A DNA stretch of 64,000 bases from an uncultured delta proteobacterium (lineage in GTDB: Bacteria > Desulfobacterota > Binatia > UBA9968). Position 1 is the stretch's first letter. Every line of letters starts with the position of its first letter. The stretch spans positions 53,189 through 117,188 of the forward strand of contig CAVWLW010000050.1 in assembly GCA_963755715.1 (NCBI GenBank). Reading direction: 5' to 3'. This document shows positions 16,153 to 58,780 of this stretch, piece by piece. The position numbers were made by a program, and so were the translations under genes. Below the pieces are notes generated by a model that saw nothing but the letters and a program-made list of their open reading frames with translations, was not told the origin of the DNA and did not search any database.

Positions 16153-17795
16153 TTGATAAAACCGTCCAATCCTAAAAACCCAACCCCTAAAGAATATTAT
16201 TTATTTCCGGGTGGGCCTGGGACAATTTCCGAATTGGAAGATGTAGAGGTGAATGCGTTGGAATTATTGGAGGCCGATGGTCACAACGTTGCCTATCTCC
16301 ATGTCCGCGGTAGCGGGCTCAGTCAAATTCCGCAGCCCAACAAATTTGATAGATTACTCCGTGCCGACTACGTGGTTGAAGACATCGAAAAGCTCAGGGT
16401 TAAACTGCTCGGAAACGATATTCCTTGGGACGCGATTGGGGGGAGAGTCATGGTGCTGTGATCGCTCAACGCTATGCATACAAATACGGGACAGCGGGCG
16501 TAAAAAAACTGGTGTTGGTTGCGCCCCCGTCAAGATCGCTGGAATCTCACAGTCACCGTAGAAGTTTAATGATTTCGAACTTGGAAGCGATCATAAGAAA
16601 CCATACTGGCCGTGCGCCGCAAAACGGATTGACTAAGCCGCCGAATCACAATGAAACTGATTCAACTAACGACCTCATCTTTGTCACCGATCAACACATT
16701 GAAGACATCAAAAGCAAACTTAACCAAGTACTCAAAGAGTTGGATGGCAGGTACGCTTCAATGAGCTTTGCTATGGAGAATTTTGCGGAGCTTAAAAGCC
16801 GAGATCCAAGTTTTAAGTCTTTTCCATATCCAGAAGAGTTTTTCAAAGCGTTACGAATCCTACAACTCTATGGTCGGCCGGAGAAAAATCTGAAATTTCT
16901 GAGGGCGGAACAGCCGCGCTTCAATGCCGCTCTATTATTGGCTCACTACTTAACCTTGCCACAAAAACAGCTGGAACACGAGGGGTGACCCAGGGCGACG
17001 TTAGGAACAACCCCATCTATCGCAAGGGGCTTAAGTCCGGACCGTCGCGTCGCTTACCAAAAAAGGCTTCAACAAGCGCAGGCTGAACTTTCAAAAGATG
17101 GCCCATCAAAATCGCGAAGAGACTATTATGTTTTGGGTGTTTATGATGGCATCAGCCGCTGGATTCTTGACGTTATGGACCGTCAAATTGAGAATGACGG
17201 GTTTTTTAGGAGTGAAGACATTCAGCGCTTCGTAAAAGGACCGGTTGCTAAAGAGCTGGCAAAAAAAATAGGCGTGGTCCCCGGGGAACCTATCTATCCT
17301 TGGAATGCGGGATACTATAAGCATCATGTGCCAACACTCGTTATAAAGGGAGATGCGGATGCTGTTATTGCTGGCGGTCAAGCTGAGAATTTTTTTAACG
17401 ACGGATTAGCAAATAAACTTGATAGCATCTTGATGGAGTTTCCTGGCATGGGACACCTCTGGAGGGAGCATGCCGATGGCTTCGTTTGCGGAGAACAAAA
17501 GCCAGGATTCGAAGTTCTTCAGATCTTGGTAAGAGAATTTTTGGCAAAACCCTTGGCTTCGACTTTTCTCCACGATCCTGACGTCAAAGCCTTAATTAAT
17601 TCTATTGGTATATCGGTTCTGCAGGAATCTAGAGAAGGTAAACTCGCAGGCATTAAAAGTGAGCAACCAATCTTCTTGGAAAAAAACGAAAAAAGAGCTG
17701 TGGGATATGATCATGAGATTGCGACATCGGACCATTGCTCCGGGCTCCAGAGAAAAATAGAAAATTGTATGCGAAAGCGCACAGAAGTCAAATAA
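16153..17795 (+). pseudogene. alpha/beta-hydrolase (proline-iminopeptidase-like, S33) with large cap insertion, frameshifted and stop-interrupted
   Basis: Three successive ORF pieces. N-terminal: YYLFPGGPGTISELEDV...YLHVRGSGLS. Nucleophile elbow GESHG (GxSxG) followed by VLVAPP. C-terminal: PTLVIKGDADAV...FPGMGHL (acid and His regions). The frame changes near 16440 and there are stops near 16986 and 17090. Confidence 0.5.
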
Positions 17796-27511: not shown

Positions 27512-28156
27512 ATGAGCCCGCCTCACTCGCCGCGCATCTATGTTCTCGCCGGCGTCAACGGCGCGGGCAAGAGCAGCATTGGCGGGGCGGCGTTTCGCGC
27601 TGCCGGCGCCGACTACTACAACCCCGACGAAGCCGCGCGCACATGGATGGCCGCTAATCCGGCGCTAACTCAAGCGGACGCCAATAGCGCCGCATGGCGC
27701 AAGGGCGTGGAACTGTTGACGCGGGCTATTGGGGAGCGCAAAAACTTCGCTTTCGAAACCACGCTTGGCGCCAACACGATCCCGCGTCTGCTCATGGAGG
27801 CCGCCTTACAAGGTATCGAACTTTACGTGTGGTACGTGGGCCTTTTCAGCCCCGAGCTTCATATCGAGCGCGTACGAGCGCGAGTCCGACGGGGCGGCCA
27901 CGACATCGCCGCCGAGCATATCCGCCGGCGCTATGAACATAGCCGCCTAAACCTCGTCGATCTCTTGCCACGGATCACAGCCTTGCGCGTTTACGACAAC
28001 AGCGCAGACGCAGATCCCGCCGCCGGCAAGATCCCCAAACCCAAGCTGGTGTTGCACATGGAAAATGGAAAGATTCTCAATCGCCGCAATCTCAGGAGCA
28101 CGCCAAACTGGGCGAAACCCATCGTCGCCGCCGCGCTAAAGCTCACGGCGAGCTGA
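27512..28156 (+). CDS. zeta-toxin family P-loop kinase (toxin of a type II TA pair)
   Basis: Walker A YVLAGVNGAGKSS, a DEAAR segment that may contain the catalytic Asp, and the ..GGHDI..YDNS.. C-terminal region characteristic of zeta/PezT toxins. Confidence 0.75.
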   Translation: MSPPHSPRIYVLAGVNGAGKSSIGGAAFRAAGADYYNPDEAARTWMAANPALTQADANSAAWRKGVELLTRAIGERKNFAFETTLGANTIPRLLMEAALQGIELYVWYVGLFSPELHIERVRARVRRGGHDIAAEHIRRRYEHSRLNLVDLLPRITALRVYDNSADADPAAGKIPKPKLVLHMENGKILNRRNLRSTPNWAKPIVAAALKLTAS

Positions 28157-28308: not shown

Positions 28309-28339
28309 GGGGTCAGCCTGTCCCCTTTTCTCGTCTCCC
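28309..28339. repeat. REP-like element ggggtcagcctgtcccc-ttttctcgtctccc (imperfect palindrome + conserved tail), copy 1 of 3
   Basis: The core cctg(a/t)cccc + ttttctcgt(c/t)cc recurs at 39485-39507 and 54730-54752. This copy overlaps the stop codon of the receiver gene. ggggtcag / ctgtcccc can pair as a hairpin. Confidence 0.5.
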
Positions 28340-32350: not shown

Positions 32351-32647
32351 TCACAGTATGTAATCGAGCACGCACAGACCAAAGCGTTTCTTCGCCTCGA
32401 AAATCCAATGCCGGGAATAGCGGCGGTCATGCACCAACGTTAAGAATTTCTGAACCTTGAATCTTCGAGAGAAGTCCGAACTGAACGTTTTGAACGCTCC
32501 GGCGTCTTTTACCTTGAACTTATGAACGCCCGCACTCTGGGGCTTGTATCGAAGATGCCTTGGTCCGAACTGGACAAGTTCGCCGAGAACTGCTGAATCG
32601 AAGTGAGAAGCTGCTTTGGTCCGACCGGAGTTCTTGAAGTGACGCAA
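32351..32647 (-). pseudogene. RAYT/IS200-like transposase 5' fragment (copy 2), terminated after ..FEAKKRFGLCVLDYIL*
   Basis: The minus-strand ORF ends HDRRYSRHWIFEAKKRFGLCVLDYIL. It contains the 35-bp sequence gaccaaagcgtttcttcgcctcgaaaatccaatgc at 32377-32411, which is 31/35 identical to 34047-34081 at the other side of the TIR gene. Confidence 0.4.
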
Positions 32648-32782
32648 GCGTTGTCGTTCAGGTCGAACTCACCAGAAGGCTTAAGCCTCGAGAGTTCCTT
32701 GAGCTAGTCGTAGCTTCTGGATCCAGATGCGGGTAACTGTACGTACTAGTCGACTCTTAAGACAGTTGCTATTGCCCCGCAC

Positions 32783-33937
32783 CTATTCGAGCGCACCGAG
32801 CAATTGGAATTCATAGACACCCACAGAACTAAAGCCGTGAGAAGATATGACCTTAACTTTCAGATACCGTGCTTTCACGGGCGGGAACTTGAACTCCTGA
32901 TAGGGTTCTTTGAAAAACCGGATGTTCTGCGTCTGAAACTTGCCGATTGACTCGAATTTTCCCGTAGCAGAATCATTTCCTGCCAGCAGCTCGAACTCTT
33001 TCAAATTCCAGCTCTCCGTACCAAGGATCAGTACCTTGAATGTATCGAAGGTTGCTGGCTTATCATTTTTGAATCCGTAAACGGCCCAACTGCCGACAAC
33101 ACCGATGTCGATGTACTGCCAATTTTTCTCATCACCGTCGATGGCGTAGGGCCATTGATCGTTGGTGGCAACAACAACGTGGCCGCCGTTTTCTGCAGAA
33201 AGCACATTCATGACAGATGATCGAGGTTGTGTCGAAGGCGCCGGCTTGGCTACTGAGGCAGCCTGCTCTTCTGTCCCTCCGGGGCCAGGTTTTGTCGGAG
33301 CGGGGGCAATATTCGTCATCGATGGAGTCGACTGCACCTGGTTTTGCGATTGAGGATGTTGCTTTTCGAAAAAACCGGTTTGGTGAAGCACCGCAAGCGA
33401 ACCAATTACGCCAGCTACGACTCCCGCCAAAACACCCCACATTGTCTTCGACCAATGCCGCGACCGCACTTCGGTATCGGTTGGGATCTGTCTTGGTTGA
33501 ACCGGGGCACTGCCATCCACCATGCCGGCGACGATCCGCATTAATTGATCGAACTCACGATGAGAAGACTCACCCTGCCAATCGGAGAGATCTGCTGCTT
33601 CGATTCTCTTGAACTCGAGGGGAATTTTGACGTTATCGATCAACGCCGGCACGAGAATTCCTCGCTCCGCACCCTCAGCTGCTTCCGTTTTCACCCAACG
33701 GGACGACACAGAGGCTTTAGACCAGAGAACAACCACACAGCGGGCCGAGCTCAACGCATTCTCGATCGTCTCGTCAAACGACTTGCCGGGCGGAATCTCT
33801 CGGTCCCACCAAACAGACCAACCCTTCTGCGAAAATGCATTCGCAAGCAGCTCAGCTTTCTCCTTATCTGCTCTCGCATAGCTGATAAAAATATCACTCA
33901 TGGGGGCCATGATGATTCCATGCCGAACGGAATGCAA
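32783..33937 (-). CDS. TIR-domain protein with central TM segment and C-terminal discoidin/F5-8 type C-like domain
   Basis: N-terminal DIFISYARADKEKAELLANAFSQKGWSVWWDREIPPGKSF..CVVVLWSKASVSSRWVKTEA matches the bacterial TIR (TIR_2) pattern. TM helix MWGVLAGVVAGVIGSLAVL. The C-terminal ~130 aa (..NWQYIDIG..ARYLKVKV..VGVYEFQLLG) looks like a galactose-binding/discoidin domain. The exact start is uncertain: TTG 33937 directly follows the upstream ORF's TGA, and ATGs at 33910 and 33901 are alternatives. Confidence 0.75.
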   Translation of the reverse strand: MHSVRHGIIMAPMSDIFISYARADKEKAELLANAFSQKGWSVWWDREIPPGKSFDETIENALSSARCVVVLWSKASVSSRWVKTEAAEGAERGILVPALIDNVKIPLEFKRIEAADLSDWQGESSHREFDQLMRIVAGMVDGSAPVQPRQIPTDTEVRSRHWSKTMWGVLAGVVAGVIGSLAVLHQTGFFEKQHPQSQNQVQSTPSMTNIAPAPTKPGPGGTEEQAASVAKPAPSTQPRSSVMNVLSAENGGHVVVATNDQWPYAIDGDEKNWQYIDIGVVGSWAVYGFKNDKPATFDTFKVLILGTESWNLKEFELLAGNDSATGKFESIGKFQTQNIRFFKEPYQEFKFPPVKARYLKVKVISSHGFSSVGVYEFQLLGALE

Positions 33938-34200
33938 TCACTCCTGCGCGGTGCGCCCCGCGTTGAGCTGCATGCTCTCGGCGATAACGTTTGGACCTGT
34001 GTCTTTGACCAGTAGGTGAACGTGGTTGGACGTGACCATGTAGTTCAGCACGGAAAGACCGAAGCGCTTCTTCGCCTCGAAAACCTAATGCAGATACGCT
34101 GTCGATCGTGTGCAACGTCTTGAAAAATTCGGTCTTCTGATGATTGTTGACCGGTGAAGTTGTTTCCTGAACTATTGCCTGTTGCCTCGTGCTTAATGCC
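33938..34200 (-). pseudogene. RAYT/IS200-like Y1 transposase 5' fragment (copy 1) retaining the HuH motif, ending at a TGA abutting the TIR gene
   Basis: The minus-strand frame gives ..FEAKKRFGLSVLNYMVTSNHVHLLVKDTGPNVIAESMQLNAGRTAQE*. NHVHLLV is the HuH signature, comparable to ..AYCLMANHYHLLVE.. in the intact RAYT at 45255-46079. Upstream degenerate codons (GIKHEATGNSSGN) match the IYHxTxRGN N-terminal motif. Confidence 0.5.
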
Positions 34201-34512
34201 TATTTTCGTGCCAGATATGGCCTGGCAGAGAGTGACGGTTCGCGCGCGGCATCGTTTCCCTTAGAGCCTGCCTTTCGGCTTCAAAAAGCCGCCTCTAAGC
34301 CTTTATTTAAAGGATGCCTTTTATGCTACCGTGGAGTTGTGAAATCAACAGCTTCCCTTGGTCCGACCCGCGACCCTGACTCAGATAGTACGCACCGGGA
34401 ATGAGAATGCGTAATGGTCGCGCCATTGCCACCTTCTTTATTATAGACATTAGCTCATCGTCGAGAAATAAAAGTCTGATCATCCTTGCATGCCAGATAG
34501 TCCTGCAAATTG

Positions 34513-36399: not shown

Positions 36400-36620
36400 A
36401 AGCAGCGCCTTCCCCGGATACCTGCTGTCAGCGCCCTGCTTGGCTGCGCTTTGCCCGGTCATCGAGGGGCGGACCCAAGTGGTTGAACGATTGAAACAAT
36501 TGGAACGACTGGAACTCTTACCTTCGGACTGTTGCCTGTTTCCTAATGGCTGTTGCCAATTCGTGGGAACTTTGAACGGTCGCTGTCTTGCAGCACAGGG
36601 TTGTGATGAACGAGGGCGAT
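36400..36620 (-). pseudogene. heavily degraded RAYT remnant (..GNRQQ.. and EFQSFQLFQSFN segments)
   Basis: Minus-strand translations give ..PLGNRQQ.. (matching the RGNxRQ N-terminal motif) and EFQSFQLFQSFN (a triplicated version of the TQSFN motif). It shares gttgcctgtt / ggaac word content with the remnants at 37.9k, 40.9k and 58.5k. Confidence 0.3.
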
Positions 36621-37466: not shown

Positions 37467-37899
37467 CTGACGTCGTCGAAAAGGCAGAACGCAAAGAGCA
37501 TAGCGCCTGCAAGAGAGAATATGTTTTTCTTCATTGCGTCCCTGTCACCATCGCTGTGCCTATTTTGTACCTGAATTTGGGCAGAACATACACCTTCCAT
37601 TGCCGAAAAAAAAAGCCAAGCGACCCTCGGAATGGTTGGATTTTCTTTTTGATGTTTGGTTCTGGTCCGCGCTGATCTGAGAGGCTGATCTAAGAGCTTG
37701 TAAACTCTGCCATCGGAGGTACCCTGCGCGCCATGGATCTCAAAGACACCGTCACGCAATTCACCGCGCAGGTCGAGCGATTCGTCACGCATCCCGCACG
37801 CCGCTGGCTTTGACGGCAATCTGATTTTGACGTTCTCAATAAACCCCACGTTTCCGAGCGTTCTGCCAGTCCGTTCTCCAAACCTCGCACTACCCGTCG

Positions 37900-38357
37900 G
37901 ATTTTCAAGCCACTGGAACCACTGAAACGATTGGAACACATGGAACCGCTCTTCGGGTGTAGAACGTTTTGAACGGACCCCGGACTAGATCCGGGGAATT
38001 GACGGCTTGAACGATTTGGACAAATCCTATTTACGTTGAACTTTTGAACCGTTGAACGCGTCTTTTCTTACCACGCCTCACCCTTCACCCCTCACTCCTC
38101 ACGCTGACTTTGATCTACTGTTGCCTGTTGCCTCGTGCCTTATGCCTATTTACGATGTGATTGACACCTTCTCCCGTCGGCGATATTTCTTTCGCAAGAG
38201 ATTGAGAGTGTTTCAAATTTCTGATACCGAACTCGGTGGATACTCGGAGAATCGAACATAGCGCTGATTCGTACCGTCCTTCGAGCCAGTGGCCTAACCG
38301 GTTGTTGAAAAACCTGATTTCAGGCTGTTCAAAAAGGTCCAGATGCGAGGCGCGCAT
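37900..38357 (-). pseudogene. RAYT 5' remnant (N-terminal motif ..GVNHIVNRHKARGNRQQ* followed by degenerate FQSFQWFQ segment)
   Basis: ORF 38115-38357(-) ends ..TGEGVNHIVNRHKARGNRQQ* (compare PGAIYHLTGRGNARQ in the intact RAYT). Downstream, 37905-37945 encodes RFHVFQSFQWFQ, which is TQSFN-like. 38112-38150 (ctactgttgcctgttgcctcgtgccttatgcctattt) recurs at 34170 and 58748. Confidence 0.4.
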
Positions 38358-38511
38358 AGACCGTGATCGTGTCCGTGAAACGTGACCGAGAAGACCGCAC
38401 GAGCACGACCACGCTACACGAACACGAATTCAAGCGAGGCGATCGAGCGCAACGAAGCAGGTGGGCCTTTTTCAACAGCCTGCTAGCGCTCGCGCTTTAC
38501 GGAGGAGACCC

Positions 38512-39084
38512 ATGTCATTGCTGACACTGCAAATGCCGGCCCTTCCCGACCCGGTCAAAGTCGTCCTCCAACCCGCGACGACGGCGTTGTTGGTGTTCGA
38601 CATGATCGATCGTATCTGCAAAAGCCAGCCGAATTGCACCGGGGTCATGGTGCCGGCCCTCGCCTCGCTGCTGGCGCGGGCACGAAAAGCCGGCGTGTTC
38701 GTCCTGTACTCTACTCGGGAGCCGGAGAGCTCGAAGTGGATGCCGGAGGTCGCTCCCGCTCCCGGCGACCCGATCGTCAAGTCGTATGCTCAGGACCGAT
38801 TCTACAGCACGGATCTCGACAAAACGCTGAAGGCCAAGGGGATCACGACGCTGATTCTCACCGGCTGGAAGGTCAGCGGCTCAGTGGTCTATACATCGGT
38901 CGGAGCGACACTGCGGGGGTACACCGTGGTCGTGCCCACGGACGCCAGCTTAGCCGCAACGGACTACGAAGTGGCGATCGGCCAATTCCAAATATTGAAT
39001 CAGAATAGCGCGAACGCCACGAACGAACCGCTGAAGGCAAACGCCTCAACCCTGAGCCGTGCGGATATGATCGTCTTTCAGTAG
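38512..39084 (+). CDS. isochorismatase-family hydrolase
   Basis: GGAGGAG RBS. MSLLTLQMP..TALLVFDMIDRIC (Asp of the catalytic triad) ..ILTGWKVSGSVVYT (Cys region). 190 aa. Confidence 0.7.
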   Translation: MSLLTLQMPALPDPVKVVLQPATTALLVFDMIDRICKSQPNCTGVMVPALASLLARARKAGVFVLYSTREPESSKWMPEVAPAPGDPIVKSYAQDRFYSTDLDKTLKAKGITTLILTGWKVSGSVVYTSVGATLRGYTVVVPTDASLAATDYEVAIGQFQILNQNSANATNEPLKANASTLSRADMIVFQ

Positions 39085-39145
39085 AAAAGGCGGCTTCGTG
39101 ATATATTGTCGTAAATATTTTCGTAAATATTTCGGTCGGACCAAG

Positions 39146-39463
39146 CTATATCGTTGCTTCATCAACGATTTCATTCCAAAAGAACGTGTTTTGAGACCTT
39201 AGAGCCTCACTTTCGCCGGTGAAATTGCTGGAGTAAGCTTCGGCGGGCTCGCGCAGTGCGTAAGTTCCATCGGTTTCGATCACGTCGCGATGGGCAGCTT
39301 TGAAGCCAAGCTCGCTTTTCACCTCGTCAATAAACGCCAAGCTTCCAACCGCGATCGATTCGGACCAGCGATCATCACGAACCGCCAAGCCGTTCCCCAG
39401 CCCTTGCTCGATCCATTGGTGGTGAGCACTTTGAAAATCTCCAAAATCCGGAAATCCGCTCAA
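39146..39463 (-). pseudogene. RAYT middle/C-terminal fragment
   Basis: ..QWIEQGLGNGLAVRDDRWSESIAVGSLAFIDEVKSELGF.. aligns with ..EFVRDGMASRPWDDLKGQIYLGSEAFIEKHASG.. of the intact RAYT. The REP-like motif agcctgtccccttttctcgttcc lies at 39485-39507. Confidence 0.45.
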
Positions 39464-39605
39464 CTTACAATGAAAAGAAAAAGTAGCCTGTCCCCTTTTC
39501 TCGTTCCAGTGCGACAGCGGCGAACCGCATCCTTGAGGCCGGGCGCCGGCTGGCTTATAGTCTGCGGAGAAACCGAATTCTCGTCATGCCGGCAGAGAGG
39601 ACACC

Positions 39606-39990
39606 GTGAGCTACGGCGAAGCGGAGATGTACTTAGTCGTGGGCCTCGCTGTAATCCTTGGCCTGATTGCGCTCCGCGTCGCGCCGGCGAGTCCCGAGGT
39701 TGTCGGCCTATCTCATGCAAATCGAAAAGCGGATTATGGCGGGCTGGCGTCTGCCGCCGCAGTCGGAGGGGCGCAAGATTACGCTGCGCATGAAGCTCAG
39801 TCCGGGCGGATATACTTCGGAGGTGCGCGTCGAAAATTCCTCCGGCGATGAAAAATTCGACGCATCGGCGTCGAGGCGGTGCGACGCGCGTCGCCATTTC
39901 CGCCGGTGCCGCTATCGATGGAAAATCTGATCGGCGATCTGCGCATGGTGCTTGACCCGACGCGGCCGAAGCGATGGCGAGTATTCTTAA
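39606..39990 (+). pseudogene. TonB/TolA-like C-terminal-domain protein, two frameshifts
   Basis: TM segment (MYLVVGLAVILGLIALRV) in one frame. A TonB-C-like segment ..GRKITLRMKLSPGGYTSEVRVENSSGDEKFDASA.. in a second frame. ..RRASPFPPVPLSMENLIGDLRMVLDP.. in a third frame. Confidence 0.3.
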
Positions 39991-40073
39991 AGAGCCTTCG
40001 CCCCTATTGCCCGCGCCGCGAGCGCCCGCGAAACCCGCCAAGCCGCCGCCGAAAAGGATTCCAGGTGAACAAA

Positions 40074-40667
40074 TCTAAAATGCTCCGGCTTTTGAGTTCT
40101 CCAGTACTCCTGCTGGTGGTCGGTTGCTCTACCCATGTCGCCTCACTCAGATATAAACCAACTGAGAAGCTTGTGGTCCGCGCCAAACGCATTCAGCCCG
40201 TCACGATAGGGAACTTCGCAGATAATCGGGGCACCGATCCATATTTGCTTGGCGCAATCCGTAGCGGGGTTGGTATCGACCTTAAAAAAATATTGGCCGA
40301 CAGACCTGTAAGCGAGCTGGTCCGGGCTGCGTTCGTCGAGGCACTCGCAGCGAGAAAAATCACCGAAGCTACGGCCACATCGCGAGTAGCGATCGAAGGG
40401 ACCATCGTCAAGTTAGACTGCAGCTACCTTTTCAATCGTGAAGCACACGTCCAGCTGCAGGTTAACGTTCTGTCCCTGCCCGCGCGGACCGTTATTTTTT
40501 CTAAATTTTACGGAACCGACAACGAAGAAGGTGGCAGGGGGGCAGGCATTCTCGGCGACACAGATCACCTTACACAGTTGCAGCAAAAAACGCTCAATCA
40601 GACCCTAGACAAGGTGATGATCGACCCTGCGTTTCTCGCGGTGCTCACGAAACCGCCGATCGACTGA
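40074..40667 (+). CDS. hypothetical lipoprotein
   Basis: MLRLLSSPVLLLVVGCSTH carries a lipobox (L-V-V-G-C). ~197 aa. An alternative GTG start lies at 40059. Confidence 0.5.
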   Translation, partial: SKMLRLLSSPVLLLVVGCSTHVASLRYKPTEKLVVRAKRIQPVTIGNFADNRGTDPYLLGAIRSGVGIDLKKILADRPVSELVRAAFVEALAARKITEATATSRVAIEGTIVKLDCSYLFNREAHVQLQVNVLSLPARTVIFSKFYGTDNEEGGRGAGILGDTDHLTQLQQKTLNQTLDKVMIDPAFLAVLTKPPID

Positions 40668-40714
40668 GCAGCACAGAGGAAATAGAGGGTCCTTGGTAGC
40701 TGGGTCGGACCCGC

Positions 40715-41250
40715 CTATGTCCTCGCATCTTCGAAGCTTTCATTCCAGAAGACAGCGGATTTGAAGCCATAGACCTCGCTCTCTTCGCGTAACACATGCG
40801 TTTCCTCAAACTGCTCGACTTCACGATGCATCGCTTTGCTGTCGAGCTCGCCTTTGATCGTCTCAGCAAAGCCAAGCTGCCAACCGCGATCGCTTCGGAG
40901 CAACGCTTCACGTTGAACATTGAACCTTGAACTTTGAACGACCGTTTATCTGAAACGTCTTGAACGGAGCGTATCCTTCGACCAGCTCAGAGCCCGTCCT
41001 GAGTTTTATCGAAGGAAAGAGCGGAAGATCGAGCCGGTCATGGTGAGCCTACCGAACCATTAAACGACTGGAACGTTTGGAACCGTTGGAACGTCTGGAA
41101 CTCCCGTAAACGATTTGAACGGTTTGAACGATTGGAACGGGCTACGGTATTCGTTGGCACGGACCATGTTGAGATCCATGTAGATCAGACAGCGATGCAG
41201 GTGCTCGTCGGTCTCAATGGCAGTGGCATGATATTAAGTCAATAACTTAA
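40715..41250 (-). pseudogene. RAYT remnant (LNPVRA-like region, triplicated TFQ/SFN segment, middle region)
   Basis: 41160-41250(-) encodes ..YMDLNMVRANEYR.. (compare YIVLNPARV). 41040-41150(-) encodes NRLREFQTFQRFQTFQSFNGS. 40715-40903(-) encodes ..LGFAETIKGELDSKAMHREVEQFEETHVLRE.., homologous to the fragment at 39146-39463. Confidence 0.45.
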
Positions 41251-41367
41251 CTCATGCCTGACCCCAATTCTGCGATCTTCCTCTAACTCGTCCCGCCTCG
41301 AGGGATTCCGAGTTGCCAAAGTCCGGGCACCGAACGTAATGTCAGTCCTTCACGATTTGCCAATCGT

Positions 41368-43980
41368 TCACGGCGTCCCGATCAAGCCGTTGGATTGGAT
41401 GTTAAAGCCGTTCATCAACCATATCGCAACCGCCCCGGAAATCTGTCGCCACAGGATATCGCTCTTGCCGTCACCGTTGAAGTCACCGGTGCCGGCGATT
41501 TGCCAATCGTTTCCCGGCGTCCCGACCAAGCCGTTGGCTTGGATGTTAAAGCCGTTCATCAACCATATCGCAACCGCCCCGGAAATCTGTCGCCACAGGA
41601 TATCGCTCTTGCCGTCACCGTTGAAGTCACCGGTGCCGGCGATTTGCCATTCGTTTCCCGGCGTCCCGACCAAGCCGTTGGCTTGGATGTTAAAGCCGTT
41701 CATCAACCATATCGCAACCGCCCCGGAAATGTGTCGCCACAGGATATCGCTCTTGCCGTCACCGTTGAAGTCACCGGTGCCGGCGATTTGCCATTCGTTT
41801 CCCGGCGTCCCGACCAAGCCGTTGGCTTGGATGTTAAAGCCGTTCATCAACCATATCGCAACCGCCCCGGAAATCTGTCGCCACAGGATATCGCTCTTGC
41901 CGTCACCGTTGAAGTCACCGGTGCCGGCGATTTGCCAACCGTTTCCCGGCGTCCCGACCAAGGCGTTGGATTGGATGTTAAAGCCGTTCATCAACCATAT
42001 CGCAACCGCCCCGGAAATGTGTCGCCACAGGATATCGCTCTTGCCGTCACCGTTGAAGTCACCGGTGCCGGCGATTTGCCAACCGTTTCCCGGCGTCCCG
42101 ACCAAGGCGTTGGATTGGATGTTAAAGCCGTTCATCAACCATATCGCAACCGCCCCGGAAATGTGTCGCCACAGGATATCGCTCTTGCCGTCACCGTTGA
42201 AGTCACCGGTGCCGGCGATTTGCCAATCGCTCTCCGCTGTCCCCAAGTCAAGCGCCGCGCCGGTGGCCCAGTTACCTGAGGTTGCGCCGGTGATAAGCTG
42301 ATTGAAGCCCCAGGCGGCCGCCGTGCTTGACGGGTCGATTTGGGTCGCCGAATAATCTCCCCAGCGACATGAAGCACTGGTCTTTTCGTTGGATACTGTG
42401 TTGCACGGGACAAAGCGAACGCCATCAAACTCCACGGTGAACTGAGTTGCCGACGTTGCGACAACGTCAAAAGTATACCCCGCGCTCGATGAGTTCGGAC
42501 CGCGGAACATGAGCATGGCTGCATTGCCGGTCGGAGCTCCCTGCGATGGCCACGTGCGCGTCGCTGTGACGAACGCATCTGCGGCGTTGGTCGCAACCGA
42601 CGGATTGAACACGTTATCGTCAGACGCAGTAAACAGATCTATTGTGAACAGCGGAGCCGTGCCCGTCGTCGAGAACTGGTAGAGCCGAGCCACAGCACGG
42701 CCATTGTTCACGGCGTGGACGTTCCATAGGGACGTTCCGTTCTGAATGCTGGCGGATTGGAAGCGACCATCCAGAGTGTCGAGCCTCTGACCGTTGGGTT
42801 GTGCAGCATCCGGCGCAGCCGTCCATGCCGTGACCGTGATCGGCGATGTGGTGCTCAACGTATCGGAACCGACACTGGCGCCCTCAGTGAGCTGATACCG
42901 CGTGATCGAGTTGCCGGAGCCCGAGCCCGGCGAGAGGAAGTACGGCGTCGTGCTGGAATCCTGGACGAGCGGAGGCGCGATATTAAACACCAAGTCGTTG
43001 AAGCATATGGCGCTAGGTGCTGTGCCGACGAGTGATGGCGCCTTATCGATCGAAATGATCGCCCCCCTCACCGTGGTGATGCCGAAATCGTTCGCCGTGA
43101 TGAACCAGCGCGCGCTGCTATATCCGGCGCTTGGATAGTCCCAGGAGCGGTTGGCTGCTTGTTTGCAAAAAAATGAGCCTCCTTGGCTGAGAAAGAAACG
43201 ATACTGGAACCACGTGGTACCAGTGTTGTCGGTGGAAACGGCGAAGTATTGGAACTGATCAGCGTTGGTGCTGTCGTCCGAGTCCGCCGATACAAAGAAG
43301 CGGTCCACCGCGGGATCGTAGAGCACACGCGGATCGAACAATGTCTGGGTTGCCGGAATCGAAAAAGCATTGAAAAAGGTCTTCAGCGATACTTTGCTGA
43401 CCAGCGCGCAGTTTGTCTTGTTGTAAACGCCGACCTCGACGTTCGTCACCGTAACGATGTTGGCTGGGCCGGCCGCACCGTGAATGTCGGACGGCAAAAA
43501 CCCCACCGCCGAGTTCGTCTGACAACTGGGCGGGACAGTTGGCGATTCCGACGGCGGCGGCTGCGGCGCACTTGTGAACGGGCCTTGCCGTTGTGCGGGC
43601 GCAACAGGCTGGTTCGTCTTGATCTGCCCCAGCGCGTCATCACCGATCGGGATTCGCCTGTGAATCGCTCTCGGGGACACATCCTGTTCGGACATGAGCA
43701 TGTCTTCGGACATGATCATGCCCAGGGGCATCTGGTAGGTCCCGCCGCCGATTGCTGTCTGGATCTGGACTTGAGCTTGCGCAGCACCCGATGGGCCGAT
43801 GAGTACGAAGCCTGAGGCTAGTCCAACGAGACGGACCAGCCAGAGGGCGATCCACCTTACGCTTCGGCTTGATGCTCTTTGAAAACTATAGTTGGCCACG
43901 TCACAACTCTGGAGTTCACAAGCACATAATCCAAGCTCGTGGCCCAGGTCAAACAGTCCTGACTCAGCCTGACCGTGCAC
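41368..43980 (-). CDS. secreted protein with N-terminal uncharacterised domain and six C-terminal FG-GAP/VCBS-like repeats
   Basis: 870-aa ORF. A signal-peptide-like segment (RWIALWLVRLVGLASGFVLIGPSGAAQAQ) follows a possible alternative GTG start. The C-terminal third is six copies of QIAGTGDFNGDGKSDILWR(H/Q)ISGAVAIWLMNGFNIQ(S/A)N(A/G)LVGTPGN(G/E/D)W. Confidence 0.7.
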   Translation of the reverse strand: MHGQAESGLFDLGHELGLCACELQSCDVANYSFQRASSRSVRWIALWLVRLVGLASGFVLIGPSGAAQAQVQIQTAIGGGTYQMPLGMIMSEDMLMSEQDVSPRAIHRRIPIGDDALGQIKTNQPVAPAQRQGPFTSAPQPPPSESPTVPPSCQTNSAVGFLPSDIHGAAGPANIVTVTNVEVGVYNKTNCALVSKVSLKTFFNAFSIPATQTLFDPRVLYDPAVDRFFVSADSDDSTNADQFQYFAVSTDNTGTTWFQYRFFLSQGGSFFCKQAANRSWDYPSAGYSSARWFITANDFGITTVRGAIISIDKAPSLVGTAPSAICFNDLVFNIAPPLVQDSSTTPYFLSPGSGSGNSITRYQLTEGASVGSDTLSTTSPITVTAWTAAPDAAQPNGQRLDTLDGRFQSASIQNGTSLWNVHAVNNGRAVARLYQFSTTGTAPLFTIDLFTASDDNVFNPSVATNAADAFVTATRTWPSQGAPTGNAAMLMFRGPNSSSAGYTFDVVATSATQFTVEFDGVRFVPCNTVSNEKTSASCRWGDYSATQIDPSSTAAAWGFNQLITGATSGNWATGAALDLGTAESDWQIAGTGDFNGDGKSDILWRHISGAVAIWLMNGFNIQSNALVGTPGNGWQIAGTGDFNGDGKSDILWRHISGAVAIWLMNGFNIQSNALVGTPGNGWQIAGTGDFNGDGKSDILWRQISGAVAIWLMNGFNIQANGLVGTPGNEWQIAGTGDFNGDGKSDILWRHISGAVAIWLMNGFNIQANGLVGTPGNEWQIAGTGDFNGDGKSDILWRQISGAVAIWLMNGFNIQANGLVGTPGNDWQIAGTGDFNGDGKSDILWRQISGAVAIWLMNGFNIQSNGLIGTP
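41383..42300 (-). repeat. six and a half tandem 141-bp coding repeats (near-identical at DNA level)
   Basis: The unit gccgttggattggatgttaaagccgttcatcaaccatatcgcaaccgccccggaaatctgtcgccacaggatatcgctcttgccgtcaccgttgaagtcaccggtgccggcgatttgccaatcgtttcccggcgtcccgaccaa recurs at 141-bp spacing, with only a handful of substitutions per copy. Confidence 0.85.
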
Positions 43981-44095
43981 TGCGGAGGCGGTGAAGCTAG
44001 CCGGGCTAACGGTTGCTTTTTCTTCCAGACTCTAAAACACCGAGTCCGATTTACGTGAACTTTAAACCTTGAACCTTGAATGGGCGCAAGCCATT

Positions 44096-45058
44096 TTACT
44101 CCGGCATCACCTGTTGGACTCGCTCGGGCTCATCGCCGAGCCACGTCGGATTGGATGCGGTGCCGTCGAAAATCGACGTCGTCTTAAACAGCTCGAATTC
44201 GCCGCGCGCAGCCGCTTTCGCCGTTTTCGTCAGCAACGATTTCACTTGGGTTTTGCCCATCGGTCGAAAAGTGCGCGCCGCGTCGAATGCCTGATCGAGA
44301 ATCTCCATGCTATCGACACCGGTGATGACCACCGACGTCGGTAAGTTTAGGGCATAGTGGAGACACTCTATCGCAGTTACGGTCTTCGACTTCAGAATAA
44401 GTCCGTTAGCCATGCTTTTCATGCCGAGCACGCCGATTTTTTGCTTCACGAGCTCGGGCAGAACCAGTTTTTCAAAGCTCCGGTAGTGCGCGTCCATGAC
44501 GTTGAGCGGCATCTGCACCGTATCGAACTTGAACCGCTGCTGCTTTGCCACCTCGAGCATATAGAGGTGAATGCGCGGGTCCTTGTGGCCGGTGAAGCCG
44601 ATGTAGCGGAGCTTTCCCGCTTTACGCGCCTCGATGAGCGCAGCGTGGGCGCCGTCGTCGTCGAAGATGCGGTGCGGATCCTCGTAGCGCAGGATCTCGT
44701 GGTGCTGGACCAGGTCAATGCAGTCGGTCTGCAGGCGACGCAACGACTCTTCGATTTGCCTCGCTGCTTCTTTTTTCGAGCGCCCGTCGATCTTGGTCAT
44801 CAAGAATACTTTGCTCCGATAGCCGTCGCGGAGCGCTTTGCCCATGCGGATCTCGCTGGCGCCGTCATTGTAGTCCCAGCAGTTGTCCATGAAGTTGATG
44901 CCGCGATGAATCGCATCGCGAACGATACGGATACTCAGCGGTTCATCCACCTTTTTGAGGCCGAGGTGCCAGCCTCCAAGACCGATGGCGGATACCCGTT
45001 CTTTGGTGCTGCCGAGGACTCGGTACGGCATTTCAGCGTGCCCTGTGTTTGTCGCCAT
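44096..45058 (-). CDS. aldo/keto reductase
   Basis: AAGGAGGAG RBS before the ATG at 45058 (MATNTGHAEMPYRVLGSTKERVSAIGLGGWHLG..). Full-length AKR fold features (..DNCWDYNDGASE.., ..IGFTGHKDP..). Confidence 0.85.
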   Translation of the reverse strand: MATNTGHAEMPYRVLGSTKERVSAIGLGGWHLGLKKVDEPLSIRIVRDAIHRGINFMDNCWDYNDGASEIRMGKALRDGYRSKVFLMTKIDGRSKKEAARQIEESLRRLQTDCIDLVQHHEILRYEDPHRIFDDDGAHAALIEARKAGKLRYIGFTGHKDPRIHLYMLEVAKQQRFKFDTVQMPLNVMDAHYRSFEKLVLPELVKQKIGVLGMKSMANGLILKSKTVTAIECLHYALNLPTSVVITGVDSMEILDQAFDAARTFRPMGKTQVKSLLTKTAKAAARGEFELFKTTSIFDGTASNPTWLGDEPERVQQVMPE

Positions 45059-45254
45059 GGTCTCCTCCTTTTGAATTGCCTGCCGTGGTTTTTTGGTTTG
45101 CTGCATGCTGGATAGATACGCGATGCGTATCATCTAAGTATTTCACCTCTTTTGTTGCCTGCAAGATGGGTTGCGGCCGGAGGGCGTGAAGAAGTCGGGG
45201 TATCCCGACTGTAAAAATTTTAGTGAAAGGGCCGGAGCTTGCGATACGACAGAG

Positions 45255-46079
45255 TCAATTCGCTTCCTCGATTCGTTTGAGTCTGCGGCTCACCGTCGCG
45301 TAGTGGACATCCAAGTGCGAGGCGATCTCGTTGAGCCGATATCCATGCGCGTACGCCTCGGCGATCGCCTTTTCGCCACTCTTTGCAAATATCCGCTGCA
45401 GCGAGGGCGTAGCCGCTCTCAATTGCGCGCGCGGTATCTCCTTAACGTCCTTTTTACCAGAAGCGTGTTTCTCGATGAACGCTTCACTTCCCAAGTAGAT
45501 CTGACCCTTGAGATCGTCCCACGGCCGACTCGCCATTCCGTCCCTGACGAACTCCCGATATCGCTGCTGTGCTCTTGATCGGCTCTTGCCAAATTGCTCC
45601 AGAATCCAGTCGGTGTGCAGAAACTCCGGCACGGATGCGAGTCCCGCGGTGGCCCGGTAACTGCTCCATTTCCAAGTGGATGCTTTGGCGCTGCTCTTGA
45701 CCCGCGCGGGATTGAGCACGATGTACCGACATAGTTCCAACAGATGCGAATCCCTTTCTACCAGGATCGCCTTGAATCGCCCCTGAAACAGATGTCCAAC
45801 CCGGTTGTGCCGGCGGTTAAAACTTTGCGTGTAAATGCCGTTGAGCTGGCGCATGCCGATCGAAAGGTTCGCCTTGGGCGTCTCCACCAGCAAGTGATAA
45901 TGATTGGCCATCAAGCAGTAGGCGCGGCAGATCCAGTGGTAGCGAGTCACCACCCCGGTCAGTGTGCTCAGAAACAACTCGCGGTCGGCGTCAGTAAAAA
46001 ACACTTTCTGCCGCGCGTTGCCGCGGCCCGTCAGATGATAGATCGCACCGGGAAACTCTAATCGCAGAGGGCGCGCCAT
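45255..46079 (-). CDS. REP-associated tyrosine transposase (RAYT; IS200-like Y1 HuH transposase, COG1943-type) with C-terminal HTH extension, apparently intact
   Basis: 274 aa with no internal stops. MARPLRLEFPGAIYHLTGRGNARQKVFFTDADRELF..YCLMANHYHLLVETP (HuH) ..GIYTQSFNRRHNRVGHLFQGRF (catalytic Tyr region) ..YIVLNPARV..WKWSSY.., then the C-terminal ..HGYRLNEIASHLDVHYATVSRRLKRIEE. Confidence 0.85.
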   Translation of the reverse strand: MARPLRLEFPGAIYHLTGRGNARQKVFFTDADRELFLSTLTGVVTRYHWICRAYCLMANHYHLLVETPKANLSIGMRQLNGIYTQSFNRRHNRVGHLFQGRFKAILVERDSHLLELCRYIVLNPARVKSSAKASTWKWSSYRATAGLASVPEFLHTDWILEQFGKSRSRAQQRYREFVRDGMASRPWDDLKGQIYLGSEAFIEKHASGKKDVKEIPRAQLRAATPSLQRIFAKSGEKAIAEAYAHGYRLNEIASHLDVHYATVSRRLKRIEEAN

Positions 46080-46328
46080 AGCACCGACCTTCTTATCGAA
46101 CGAAATGTGTTATTGCAAGACCTGACCCCAAAACCATGCACTCCGCGCTGGTCGCGCCTGCTTATCGGCTTCAGCGCGCTTTACGCCGGCGCCATGATCG
46201 CGCTATGTTCTAACGATGATTTTTAAGCCCGAGATGCGCTGGTTCGGCGGCACGATTCCGATTTTCTTTCACTTCGTGCTGGCCGGTTTTATCTTGGTGC
46301 TTGGACGCTACCACTCTCAAGCCAGCAA

Positions 46329-58140: not shown

Positions 58141-58780
58141 ACGCTGCAACACAAACCGACGATGCGTGGCGTGCCCGCTCGACATCGGGACTTCGGTACA
58201 GGCGTTCGGGAATTTGTCTTAGAGACAGGCTACTTTTCTTCTCGCTGCGCGGTCGGCCGCGTGATCGCAATGTGCTTCCAAGTCCGAAAGTCTCAGCTAT
58301 TTCCCTTTGCCATTCTGAGTGACCGTACGATCTTTGCCGATTCAGGCATTCCCGTACTGCCACCACTTGCAACTCGTCCAACGGATTTTTCAACTGCACC
58401 GACCACGAATTCTCTTCATCCGTAGGCAGGCGATCTATAAGCTGCCTTCGCAGAACGCCGCCCGCTGCCCTTTGCGCAGGGTTGTATTCCTGGGTAACGG
58501 GGCCAGAAACTACACTTTGCACATTGAACCTTGAACCGGCGATCGTTCTATGGCCTATTGCCTTCATCCTTGCCTCAAGTCTATCTTGAGTGAAGCGCTG
58601 GAAGGTTGAAAGGGTTCCGTTTGGGAACATTGAAACTTTGAACGATCTCCGGCGTTAAACGTCTTGAACGGACTAGATTCGGGGGATCGCACGGCTTGAA
58701 CGATTTGAATTCTCCCGAGTATTACGTTGAGCTTTGAACCTTGAACCATCTCTTTACTGTTGCCTCATCCCTATTCGCTT
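58139..58780 (-). pseudogene. RAYT remnant (catalytic-Tyr region through C-terminal ..FGLGSTLRSRGRPRSEKK; degenerate N-terminal motif at 58748-58775)
   Basis: MFPNGTLSTFQRFTQ..IGHRTIAGSRFNVQSVV..YNPAQRA..ENSWSV.. aligns with LNGIYTQSFNRRH..GHLFQGRFKAILV..LNPARV..WKWSSY of the intact RAYT. 58620-58750 shares the gttcaa-rich ~170-bp architecture with 37940-38110. Confidence 0.45.

Follow-up and report, generated by a model that had tools for sequence, protein, structure and literature searches.

Putative C-terminal remnants of a Y1 transposase-like element on both sides of a lipoprotein gene in a hypervariable island

The locus and its genes

Two transposase-like pieces, fragment A and fragment B, bracket two genes within the window, by which we mean the whole 64-kb stretch of DNA that was analysed. 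The features of this block are listed below by coordinates and strand.

39134..39145, minus strand: 3' terminus of copy A, CTTGGTCCGACC on the minus strand, directly after the stop codon
39146..39469, minus strand: fragment A, coding remnant of aa 161-267 of a 267-aa Y1 transposase-like protein, plus stop
39470..39507, no strand given: solo MITE end (GGGGACAGGCTACTTTTTC...) from a ~250-bp MITE, at the 5' breakpoint of fragment A
39606..39975, plus strand: TonB_2/TolA-C-like gene remnant with a TM segment and C-terminal domain, frameshifted at ~39700 and ~39870
40080..40667, plus strand: lipoprotein gene, 195 aa, lipobox LLLVVGC
40703..40714, minus strand: 3' terminus of copy B, GCGGGTCCGACC on the minus strand, after the stop codon; repeat family D2
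40715..40923, minus strand: fragment B, coding remnant of aa ~188-267, plus stop
40905..41138, minus strand: repeat DNA inserted in copy B in place of aa 136-187, with TTGAAC/TGGAAC hexamer arrays; family D1
41135..41243, minus strand: core piece of copy B, YHATAIETDEHLHRCLIYMDLNMVRA, aa 103-135

An earlier note on this DNA had described the two pieces (39146-39463 and 40715-40903) as homologous, co-oriented and flanking a frameshifted TonB-C-like gene and a lipoprotein gene, and all of this holds. BLASTP aligns A with B at 34% amino acid identity over 62 aa (E 2e-9), a tblastn search of the whole window recovers the similarity at E ~1e-6, and a profile built from full-length relatives of the transposase-like protein matches 39155-39469 (E 1.3e-41, profile positions 161-265) and 40766-40876 (E 5e-7). 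Collinear DNA blocks of 50, 38 and 15 nt are 76%, 87% and 87% identical, respectively, the longest exact identity is ~13 nt, and in their overlap (aa 188-267) the two fragments belong to different subfamilies. The description of the pieces as middle-region fragments has to be revised, as both are C-terminal ends that run to residue 267 and then into the element's terminal motif.

Neither fragment has an NCBIfam match, nor a Pfam match, the latter because both lie C-terminal to the Y1_Tnp domain, and an exact-sequence look-up of fragment A gave no match. Starting at aa 161 and ~188, they are without the HUH and Tyr motifs. Fragment A keeps an open frame in the window and is 58-83% identical to copies from Binatia-type MAGs; it is nonetheless a pseudogene, and its orthologue is frameshifted in sister strains L040 and L041. 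The many database matches of exactly 105 aa had prompted the idea that this ORF is a selected stand-alone protein, which was rejected given the frameshifts and truncations in genomic copies and in the two sister-strain orthologues. Fragment B, with one internal frameshift (~40880) and an 11-codon deletion, is part of a longer pseudogene that resumes in the core piece after 235 bp of repeat DNA; there the position of the catalytic Tyr is kept and the HUH motif is gone. Judged by their sequences, A, B and the core piece are remnants that would be non-functional as Y1 members.

The genes between the fragments are also damaged or shortened. The TonB_2 score of the TonB-like remnant rises from 33.6 bits (Pfam E 4.5e-8, longest frame) to 52.2 bits after frameshift repair, and sister strains carry the same 81-aa ORF call within it. 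The lipoprotein gene had been placed at 40074-40667; its end stands, while its start moves to the real ATG at 40080. The product has no C-terminal SHOCT tail, which is present in its closest non-strain homologues (P0124-P0126; 239-287 aa, 63-67% identical), and is distantly YajG/Lipoprotein_16-like through homologue P0140, which matches Lipoprotein_16. More distant homologues (L033, L044, and L046) occur in other contexts with no flanking fragments, the very situation in related genomes that the earlier note had said would speak against its reading. A 105-aa ORF near the L033 homologue was considered as a conserved partner and rejected as an unrelated Pro-rich ORF.

The parent element

Sequence comparison points to fragments A and B as the C-terminal, 3'-terminal remains of two paralogous copies of a Y1/HUH transposase element that is ~0.92 kb long. 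The parent element, which encodes a 267-aa Y1/HUH (IS200/RAYT-type) transposase, is found multi-copy and full-length in Binatia-type MAGs, with 2-4 copies in a single MAG (for example L006, L012, L014, and L031 in CAWDPO01). Its termini are 5' GGGTCGGACC and 3' GGTCCGACCC; the ten full-length loci have the 5' terminus and a leader of ~105 nt in common, as well as a 3' TGGTCCGACCC terminus, and the motif c(g/t)TGGTCCGACCC follows the stop codon in 10/10. Each end repeats the other in inverted form over 10 nt, with no convincing hairpin (z = -1.45). The leader fold was not significant against shuffles, and its alifold recovered only an invariant CUUAGA/UCUAAG stem, which is uninformative. In the window, the true 3'-terminal motif GGTCCGACC lies on the minus strand at 39134-39142 (A) and 40703-40711 (B), and GGTCSGACC occurs five times against 0.49 expected, each time at the end of a gene remnant or at an expected element-end position.

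The full-length relatives belong to the Y1/HUH superfamily, with invariant H60 and H62 (HUH) and Y103 (Tyr), and three of them (L004, L013, and L018) match Pfam PF01797 Y1_Tnp at 37.8-42.7 bits (gathering score 23). A ~125-aa C-terminal extension of the protein is covered by no Pfam or NCBIfam model. Searching the PDB with a full-length relative by phmmer gave no match, and a profile search returned ISDra2 TnpA (2xm3) alone, a weak match with HUH and Tyr aligned.

RAYT/TnpA-REP proteins (Nunvar 2010, PMC2817692; Bertels 2017, PMC5581495) have the same Y1/HUH single-domain fold and the same conserved HUH and Tyr. The full-length relatives score better on NCBIfam NF047646 REP_Tyr_transpos (63.6 and 71.8 bits) than on NF033573 transpos_IS200 (23.7-24.9 bits), yet stay below the respective cut-offs of 80 and 55. 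RAYTs are typically single-copy per genome (Bertels 2017, PMC5581495), whereas this family is multi-copy with many decayed copies, its protein carries the unmodelled extension, and its terminal motif, within the window, goes with gene remnants and is not scattered in the manner of independent REP/REPIN repeats.

The likeness to IS200/IS605 elements (IS200, IS608, ISDra2) lies in the size of ~0.9 kb, the single Y1 transposase gene with a leader upstream of the ATG, the multiple copies with conserved gene-attached ends, the weak match to ISDra2 TnpA, and the single orientation of all copies on a strand tending to be G-rich. On the transposase sense strand, 18/25 loci and the window have a positive GC skew, a weak trend (p = 0.04, loci not all independent). 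IS200/IS605 elements have subterminal hairpins at both ends and no terminal inverted repeats, and they transpose strand-specifically as single strands. The present element has 10-nt inverted ends rather than demonstrated subterminal hairpins, and its protein is ~110 aa longer than IS200 TnpA. It would be RAYT-like by sequence and IS-like in behaviour.

At least seven firm remnants of this family, and a weaker eighth (fragment C) read manually, lie in the window, all on the minus strand and none intact. They include the following.

37740..37915, minus strand: fragment C, a third C-terminal remnant, aa ~180-230, heavily decayed, with weak tblastn matches
32357..34368, minus strand: a pair of remnants from the 5' end of this element family, on either side of a TIR-domain gene

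The translation of fragment C reads RGLENGLAERSETWG ... VGFIENVK and adjoins an array element at 37914-38057. The similar arrangement that had been reported at the TIR gene is seen, with one remnant at 34368-34208 (terminus, leader, and aa 1-15) and 34084-33941 (aa 40-87) and the other at 32626-32357 (terminus, array, and aa ~30-55). A search past the RAYT274 stop codon for the RAYT274 5' terminus in inverted form found none.

Repeat DNA at the truncation points

Every truncation point examined adjoins array or MITE sequence. Elements related to the arrays within copy B lie at 36483-36515, 37914-38057, 44021-44080, and 58638-58746, and the copy B arrays include a short hairpin (40975-41015) whose fold z-score is non-significant against shuffles. 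A complete MITE with the inverted ends of the solo MITE end is found in L036, and the MITE-end 20-mer recurs in the window at 28315 and 54730. At the 5' junction of fragment A, L040 and L041 have a TTGAAC-array element instead, and L037 has an extra 143-bp MITE. The arrays number 51 in 274 kb. As a REP partner of the transposase they are unsupported, being inconsistent at intact genes, which they do not regularly flank, and only ~1.7-fold enriched beside remnants. Scanning the full window for Rfam families and tRNAs gave no match, so the window holds no tRNA-type integration site and no known RNA; a promoter/terminator scan found nothing above chance.

Variation among sister strains

Nine contigs from near-identical strains were compared with the window and fall into at least five architectures. 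Breakpoints lie at 46131, 44017/44021, 41346/41288/41233/41143, 40807, 40091, 39507/39477/39440, ~39150, and 39093; of these, 40807 falls within fragment B and 40091 within the lipoprotein gene, 44017-44021 belongs to a repeat array, and 39093 is past fragment A. Most structural breakpoints are in or beside repeats, and in none of the nine contigs do presence/absence breakpoints coincide with the fragment boundaries. One of the differences concerns the following segment.

40808..44020, no strand given: 3,213-bp segment present in the window and absent from L032, L038, and L042; covers the 5' portion of fragment B together with arrays, the core piece, and an FG-GAP gene

Its junction (40807|44021), the sole one resolved at base level, has 2-5 nt of microhomology, and since the RAYT frame runs unbroken through 40807/40808, the best reading of the 3.2-kb difference is that L032-type strains have lost the segment by deletion. 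A longer copy B is kept in sister strains L037, L040, and L041, with aa 42-134 retained and truncation by an array at aa 42, so that the state in the window would be a later deletion; copy B is already array-disrupted in every strain seen. L036 lacks the whole block and has a MITE and different filler there rather than a clean empty site, and an empty target site for copy A or B was not recovered among the contigs. The island neighbours are TIR and zeta-toxin genes and, in sister strains, RM/AAA_15 genes. The locus is thus hypervariable and recombinationally very active, with repeats marking most breakpoints. It resembles REP/BIME and MITE clusters in variable islands, where dense intergenic repeats coincide with strain indel breakpoints; the repeats here are TTGAAC arrays, two MITE families, and IS remnants, and the TTGAAC elements differ from REPs in being hexamer arrays with no palindromic structure and no Rfam match.

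These contigs bear directly on the proposal of the earlier note that the co-oriented copies are the arms of a composite-transposon-like unit with the TonB-like and lipoprotein genes as captured cargo. As in the compound transposons Tn5, Tn9, and Tn10, two related mobile-element sequences, here homologous and in direct orientation, surround unrelated genes; the TIR gene is similarly bracketed; and the cargo is 99.9-100% identical among strains, against a ~2% difference in the neighbouring isochorismatase gene. The proposal nevertheless fails every test run and is scarcely credible. In place of two similar, end-proficient copies with both outer ends, the arms are dead, divergent, one-ended Y1 tails (34% identical in protein, 76-87% in DNA over blocks of at most 50 nt) that are both without HUH and Tyr, and the B-side outer 5' end is absent from the window and array-truncated at aa 42 in sister strains. 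Across the nine contigs, arms and cargo do not come and go as a unit with constant junctions: no strain-level indel uses the arm boundaries, and in L038 and L042 the lipoprotein gene lies beside only the last 117 bp of fragment B, with no adjacent fragment A. Y1 transposases (IS200/IS605), moreover, are not known to form IS-flanked compound transposons.

Read-through single-strand transposition, in which copy B, while still intact, passed over its own 3' end for that of A and carried the genes between, would explain why both pieces have a genuine 3' terminus in the same orientation, and end skipping is conceivable by analogy with IS200/IS605 and IS91-type elements, as Y1/HUH elements recognise their ends individually. 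The strain data make it very improbable, since the lipoprotein gene goes with the RAYT274-AKR side rather than with fragment A in L032, L038, and L042, the 3' end of A is still beside the isochorismatase gene in L042 where the cargo has been replaced, and copy B is array-disrupted throughout.

Insertion of the cargo by homologous recombination (Campbell-type or unequal) between RAYT copies at dispersed positions, with a partial copy left on each side, is likewise an unlikely origin of the bracketing. The direct orientation of both tails fits such an exchange, most breakpoints are in or next to repeats, and L028, from another MAG, joins two RAYT families in one chimera. Between strains, the 5' half of fragment A diverges by 10-21% against 0-3% in its flanks, and small-scale patchy replacement has occurred there. 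The longest A-B identity, however, is well under what RecA-type exchange needs, the overlapping parts come from different subfamilies, the base-resolved junction shows just the short microhomology given above, and the truncation points hold array or MITE DNA rather than hybrid RAYT sequence. Of the earlier suggestion of RAYT recombination, then, the active locus and the patchy replacement at A stand, and no evidence was found for a RAYT-by-RAYT origin of the bracketing.

Origin of the two fragments

Very probably, A and B are the 3' remains of separate element copies, and the intervening genes are ordinary DNA between the insertion sites rather than captured cargo. The insertion sites would have been ~50 bp downstream of the isochorismatase stop codon for copy A and 35 bp downstream of the lipoprotein gene's present stop codon for copy B. 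Both copies are oriented like every other copy in the window, an arrangement that may reflect single-strand transposition of the strand-specific kind seen in IS200/IS605. A MITE and TTGAAC-array elements would later have inserted into both copies, and deletions would then have stripped their 5' parts and left the non-catalytic tails, with the TonB-like pseudogene and the lipoprotein gene being DNA that already lay between the two sites. The block would sit in a hypervariable island in which several kinds of repeat are preferred sites of deletion and replacement. The homology, the true 3' termini, the interruption by repeats, the pseudogene status, and the strain indels with breakpoints elsewhere are all directly observed; the order of insertions and deletions is the likely one given these remains. 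Two observations speak against this reading. In many independent copies the 5' truncation falls at aa 145-190, a clustering that simple random decay would not predict and that may arise from a target preference of the array elements or from the spread of already-disrupted copies. The near-identity of the cargo among strains, beside an isochorismatase gene that differs by ~2%, would also be compatible with a block that spread horizontally in recent times.

Implications

The bracketing is thus ordinary mobile-element debris in a variable island. It offers little to build on in itself, as the neighbours are also damaged, the TonB-like gene being frameshifted and the lipoprotein lacking its SHOCT tail. 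A more far-reaching possibility, conceivable if doubtful, is that the ~0.92-kb element represents a branch of RAYT-like Y1 elements that is undescribed, IS-like and still active, that its array-disrupted, non-autonomous derivatives are mobilised in trans, and that these, together with co-oriented TTGAAC arrays, drive the turnover of cassettes in the variable, defence-type islands that Binatia carry; if so, the truncation clusters at aa 15-42 and 135-190 would mark a target preference or the spread of one disrupted ancestor. What the analysis provides is an element family defined by its ends, leader, and 267-aa protein, which can be used for annotating Binatia-type MAGs and by which the common 105-aa "putative transposase" ORFs become recognisable as the tails of dead copies, along with a hypervariable locus, well sampled in nine strain contigs, at which several kinds of repeat lie at the breakpoints of deletion and replacement.

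Two transposase tails and the genes between them

Fragments A and B, the two remnants that flank the lipoprotein gene, share 34% identity across 62 residues (BLASTP, E 2e-9), each is the sole significant tblastn match of the other in the 64-kb window (E ~1e-6), and three collinear stretches of their DNA agree at 76% (50 nt), 87% (38 nt) and 87% (15 nt), the longest exact tract being ~13 nt. The earlier note was therefore right that both open reading frames are real and homologous, as it was that they lie in the same orientation and bracket a frameshifted TonB-like gene and a lipoprotein gene. Its description of them as middle-region fragments was mistaken, since the family profile places A at aa 161-267 and B at aa ~188-267 of a 267-aa transposase-like protein, making both C-terminal tails.

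39146-39463, minus strand: fragment A, open reading frame of 105 aa
40715-40903, minus strand: fragment B, open reading frame of 62 aa
Between A and B, plus strand: TonB_2/TolA-C-like frame (Pfam E 4.5e-8)
40080 (ATG) to 40667, plus strand: lipoprotein gene, lipobox LLLVVGC

The TonB_2-like frame is broken by frameshifts near 39700 and 39870, and its score rises from 33.6 to 52.2 bits once three frames are joined. The lipoprotein gene next to copy B, the element copy that ends in fragment B, is probably itself truncated, because it lacks a C-terminal SHOCT found in two of its three distant homologues (L033, L044 and L046; 51-67% identical) and in the three closest overall (P0124-P0126). The distant homologues occupy other gene contexts, without a TonB-like partner, RAYT remnant or terminal motif, an outcome that the earlier note had named as refuting its reading.

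The parent element family

Pfam and NCBIfam give no match for either fragment. Relatives of fragment A number in the hundreds (60-94% identical), most of them short open reading frames labelled "putative transposase" by JGI, and the longer ones extend upstream into ...AFWEDRYHATAIE...HLHRCLVYIDLNMVRAGVV... A one-genome-per-species scan for the family yielded 31 loci, mostly in "uncultured delta proteobacterium" or Candidatus Binatia MAGs, 10 of which hold an intact 265-267-aa gene (MPRANRHF...SNHVHLL...EDRYHATAIE...RDDRWSEAIAVGS...YALRE...FW.EN). The full-length proteins score 38-43 bits against Pfam Y1_Tnp (gathering score 23), 64-72 against NCBIfam REP_Tyr_transpos (cut-off 80) and 24-25 against NCBIfam transpos_IS200 (cut-off 55). 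Their HUH motif (H60, H62) and tyrosine (Y103) are invariant and align with those of ISDra2 TnpA in a weak profile match to the PDB; both are absent from the two window fragments. Most truncated MAG copies carry frameshifts, insertions or premature ends, and strain loci L037 and L039 have an intact orthologue of fragment A, L040 and L041 a frameshifted one. Fragments A and B are pseudogenes.

The motif c(g/t)TGGTCCGACCC directly follows the stop codon in all 10 full-length loci, and its inverted copy, CCGGGTCGGACCA, precedes the ATG by ~105 nt, with a conserved leader coming after it; strain locus L038 has a nearly complete copy of about 912 bp. In the window, GGTCSGACC occurs at five sites, against 0.49 expected, and by this motif fragments A and B both reach the true 3' end of the element.

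39134: right after the fragment A stop codon
40703: right after the fragment B stop codon
34360: 5' terminus of a 5' remnant
32618: 5' terminus of a second 5' remnant
36107: possible additional 3' end, without recognisable coding remnant

The leader (~105 nt; e.g., 260-346 in L013, 34252-34368 and 62608-62719 in the window) contains an invariant CUUAGA...UCUAAG stem. Single-sequence folds also predict an outer stem in which the start-codon region pairs with a segment further upstream, reminiscent of IS200 translational occlusion.

Further remnants in the window

Besides fragment A, the family profile matches seven pieces, all on the minus strand, of which six are assigned to the A/B family. 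The seventh is a separate RAYT-like gene that is intact, whereas the family itself has no intact copy in the 64-kb window.

45255-46079, minus strand: intact RAYT-like gene distinct from the element family, 274 aa, Y1_Tnp and C-terminal HTH (profile match)
41233-41135, minus strand: copy B core piece (profile match); 41243-41135 encodes YHATAIETDEHLHRCLIYMDLNMVRA, aa 103-135
40923-40765, minus strand: fragment B (profile match)
62608-62555, minus strand: 5' remnant (profile match)
34252-34208, minus strand: 5' remnant (profile match)
34084-33941, minus strand: 5' remnant (profile match)
32467-32357, minus strand: 5' remnant (profile match)
37915-37740, minus strand: third tail, heavily decayed (read by eye)

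Copy B extends further than had been noticed: upstream of fragment B in the minus sense, a 235-bp insert takes the place of aa 136-187 and consists of TTGAAC/TGGAAC hexamer arrays enclosing a short hairpin. Exactly where the family pieces are cut off lie array elements or an end of a ~250-bp MITE. Dead copies in the MAG loci (L001, L006, L012, L014, L020-L022, L026, L028-L031) are independent of one another, yet their 5' cut-offs group at aa ~145-190 of 267; the window and sister strains show another group at aa 15-42. Random decay would not predict this pattern.

Strain comparison

Nine contigs from near-identical strains, used for the comparison that the earlier note had called for, share 96-99.95% identical segments with the window; strain loci were found through window proteins, L032, L034 and L035 by lipoprotein homologues and L036-L043 by the exact 274-aa RAYT sequence. 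Their alignment reveals at least five architectures. L037, L039, L040 and L041 approximate the window layout, with copy B keeping aa 42-134 in L037, L040 and L041, and 41345-41144 missing from L039. The 5' junction of fragment A also differs: the window shows a lone MITE end there, L037 has a further MITE of 143 bp, and an array element occupies it in L040 and L041. In L032, L038 and L042, 44021 is fused directly to 40807, inside fragment B, with 2-5 nt of microhomology; RAYT homology is unbroken across 40807/40808 in the window, so the junction is most simply read as a deletion in those three loci. Similarity stops at 40091, in the lipoprotein signal peptide, in L038, L042 and also L034, with unrelated genes beyond, and L032, which starts at 39787, is collinear with the window across this point. 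L042 rejoins the window at 39120, where all that is left of a fragment-A-like tail is its final few codons. L036 passes from 44017 through a 250-bp MITE to 39093, lacking both fragments and the TonB-like, lipoprotein and FG-GAP genes, and additionally lacks 38144-36095.

No pair of variants among the nine contigs differs by a unit bounded by fragments A and B. The arrangement is not a composite transposon of the kind that the earlier note had offered as one of two options.

In the comparison with L037, L040 and L041, the block comprising the TonB-like gene, lipoprotein gene and copy B (window 39478-41233) is 99.9-100% identical between strains, the sole exception being one 9-13-bp indel near 399xx. 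In the stretch set against it (38433-39440), the adjoining isochorismatase gene diverges by about 2%, and similarity along the locus is therefore mosaic.

Surrounding repeats and variable loci

TTGAAC/TGGAAC array elements lie at 36483-36515, 37914-38057, 40905-41138, 44021-44080 and 58638-58746. They are abundant, often begin with GAGGCAACAGGCAA(C/T)AGT, enclose a short hairpin and have no Rfam match. The MAG loci L001-L031 contain 51 in 274 kb, strongly co-oriented with the local RAYT copy (44 vs 7), and window counts are 68 on one strand vs 30 on the other. Of two MITE families, the 143-bp one (GATTCCGCTGAAAAA inverted ends) is inserted in L037 only (16816-16958), and the ~250-bp one (GGGGACAGGCTACTTTTTC inverted ends) is complete in L036 (12064-12315), with solo ends or 20-mers in the window at 28315, 39485, 54730 and 62555, two of the four at RAYT truncation points.

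A 2.1-kb minus-strand module (44021-46131; loci L032 and L036-L043) combines the 274-aa RAYT-like gene, whose protein is identical in all eight loci L036-L043, with an adjacent aldo/keto reductase. Similarity to the window ends at 46131 (at GGGGTCAGGTC, ~50 bp upstream of the RAYT ATG) in seven of these loci and at 46125, about 6 bp away, in L043. Beyond lie at least six upstream contexts (type I RM, AAA_15/helicase, IS110, phage-like small ORFs and others), and 46131 may be an element terminus at which variable or defence DNA preferentially accumulates; downstream, a search for its inverted copy found none.

A TIR-domain gene (ATG ~33910, end 32783, minus strand; region 32357-34368) starts ~30 nt after a RAYT remnant ending at aa 87. 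The 5' terminus and leader of that copy are intact and lie upstream of the TIR gene, so a promoter of the dead element may drive the gene's transcription. Between its aa 15 and aa 40 the copy carries an array insert identical to the one upstream of copy B in L037, implying that an already disrupted element was duplicated. A zeta-toxin/AAA_33 family gene (27512-28156) a few kb away fits a variable region rich in toxin or defence genes. Within the 870-aa FG-GAP repeat gene (41368-43980, minus strand), a 144-bp tandem repeat (41353-42229) is present in 6.1 copies, 98% identical; sister strains have 787-aa and fragmented versions, so repeat number varies.

Recombination and origin of the arrangement

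The suggestion that RAYT copies recombined holds in part. The window and L040/L041 differ most in fragment A's 5' half, with 10-21 changes per 100 bp, against 0-1 in the cargo genes and 1-3 in the isochorismatase gene, a patchy replacement that accompanies the different repeat at the A junction. In another MAG (L028, 5557-6309), an open 251-aa chimera has the N-terminal Y1 domain of a different RAYT family (MARRPRLLAPGVLYHVIVRGN...) fused, at aa ~148, with the A/B family's C-terminal tail. Exchange involving family sequences therefore happens. It leaves the bracketing unexplained, and the exact tracts shared by A and B are ~13 nt at most.

The bracketing probably reflects a small Y1 element that inserted twice, independently, and both times in the orientation that every copy shares; array or MITE insertions then disrupted each of the two, and deletion removed its 5' part, with ongoing illegitimate and repeat-associated rearrangement within a variable island thereafter. 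The shared orientation would have a strand-linked cause, for which there is some support: the transposase sense strand shows a G-rich bias in the window and in 18 of 25 loci (p = 0.043), and IS200/IS605 elements are known to target the lagging-strand template (PMC6006769).

By definition, RAYTs usually occur as a single copy with dispersed REPINs on either side (PMC5581495). The parent protein is closer by sequence to RAYTs than to IS200 TnpA, but the element is IS-like in behaviour, being multi-copy, with ends bound to the gene and many dead copies. The family appears to be unnamed, and the arrangement around fragments A and B is mobile-element debris.
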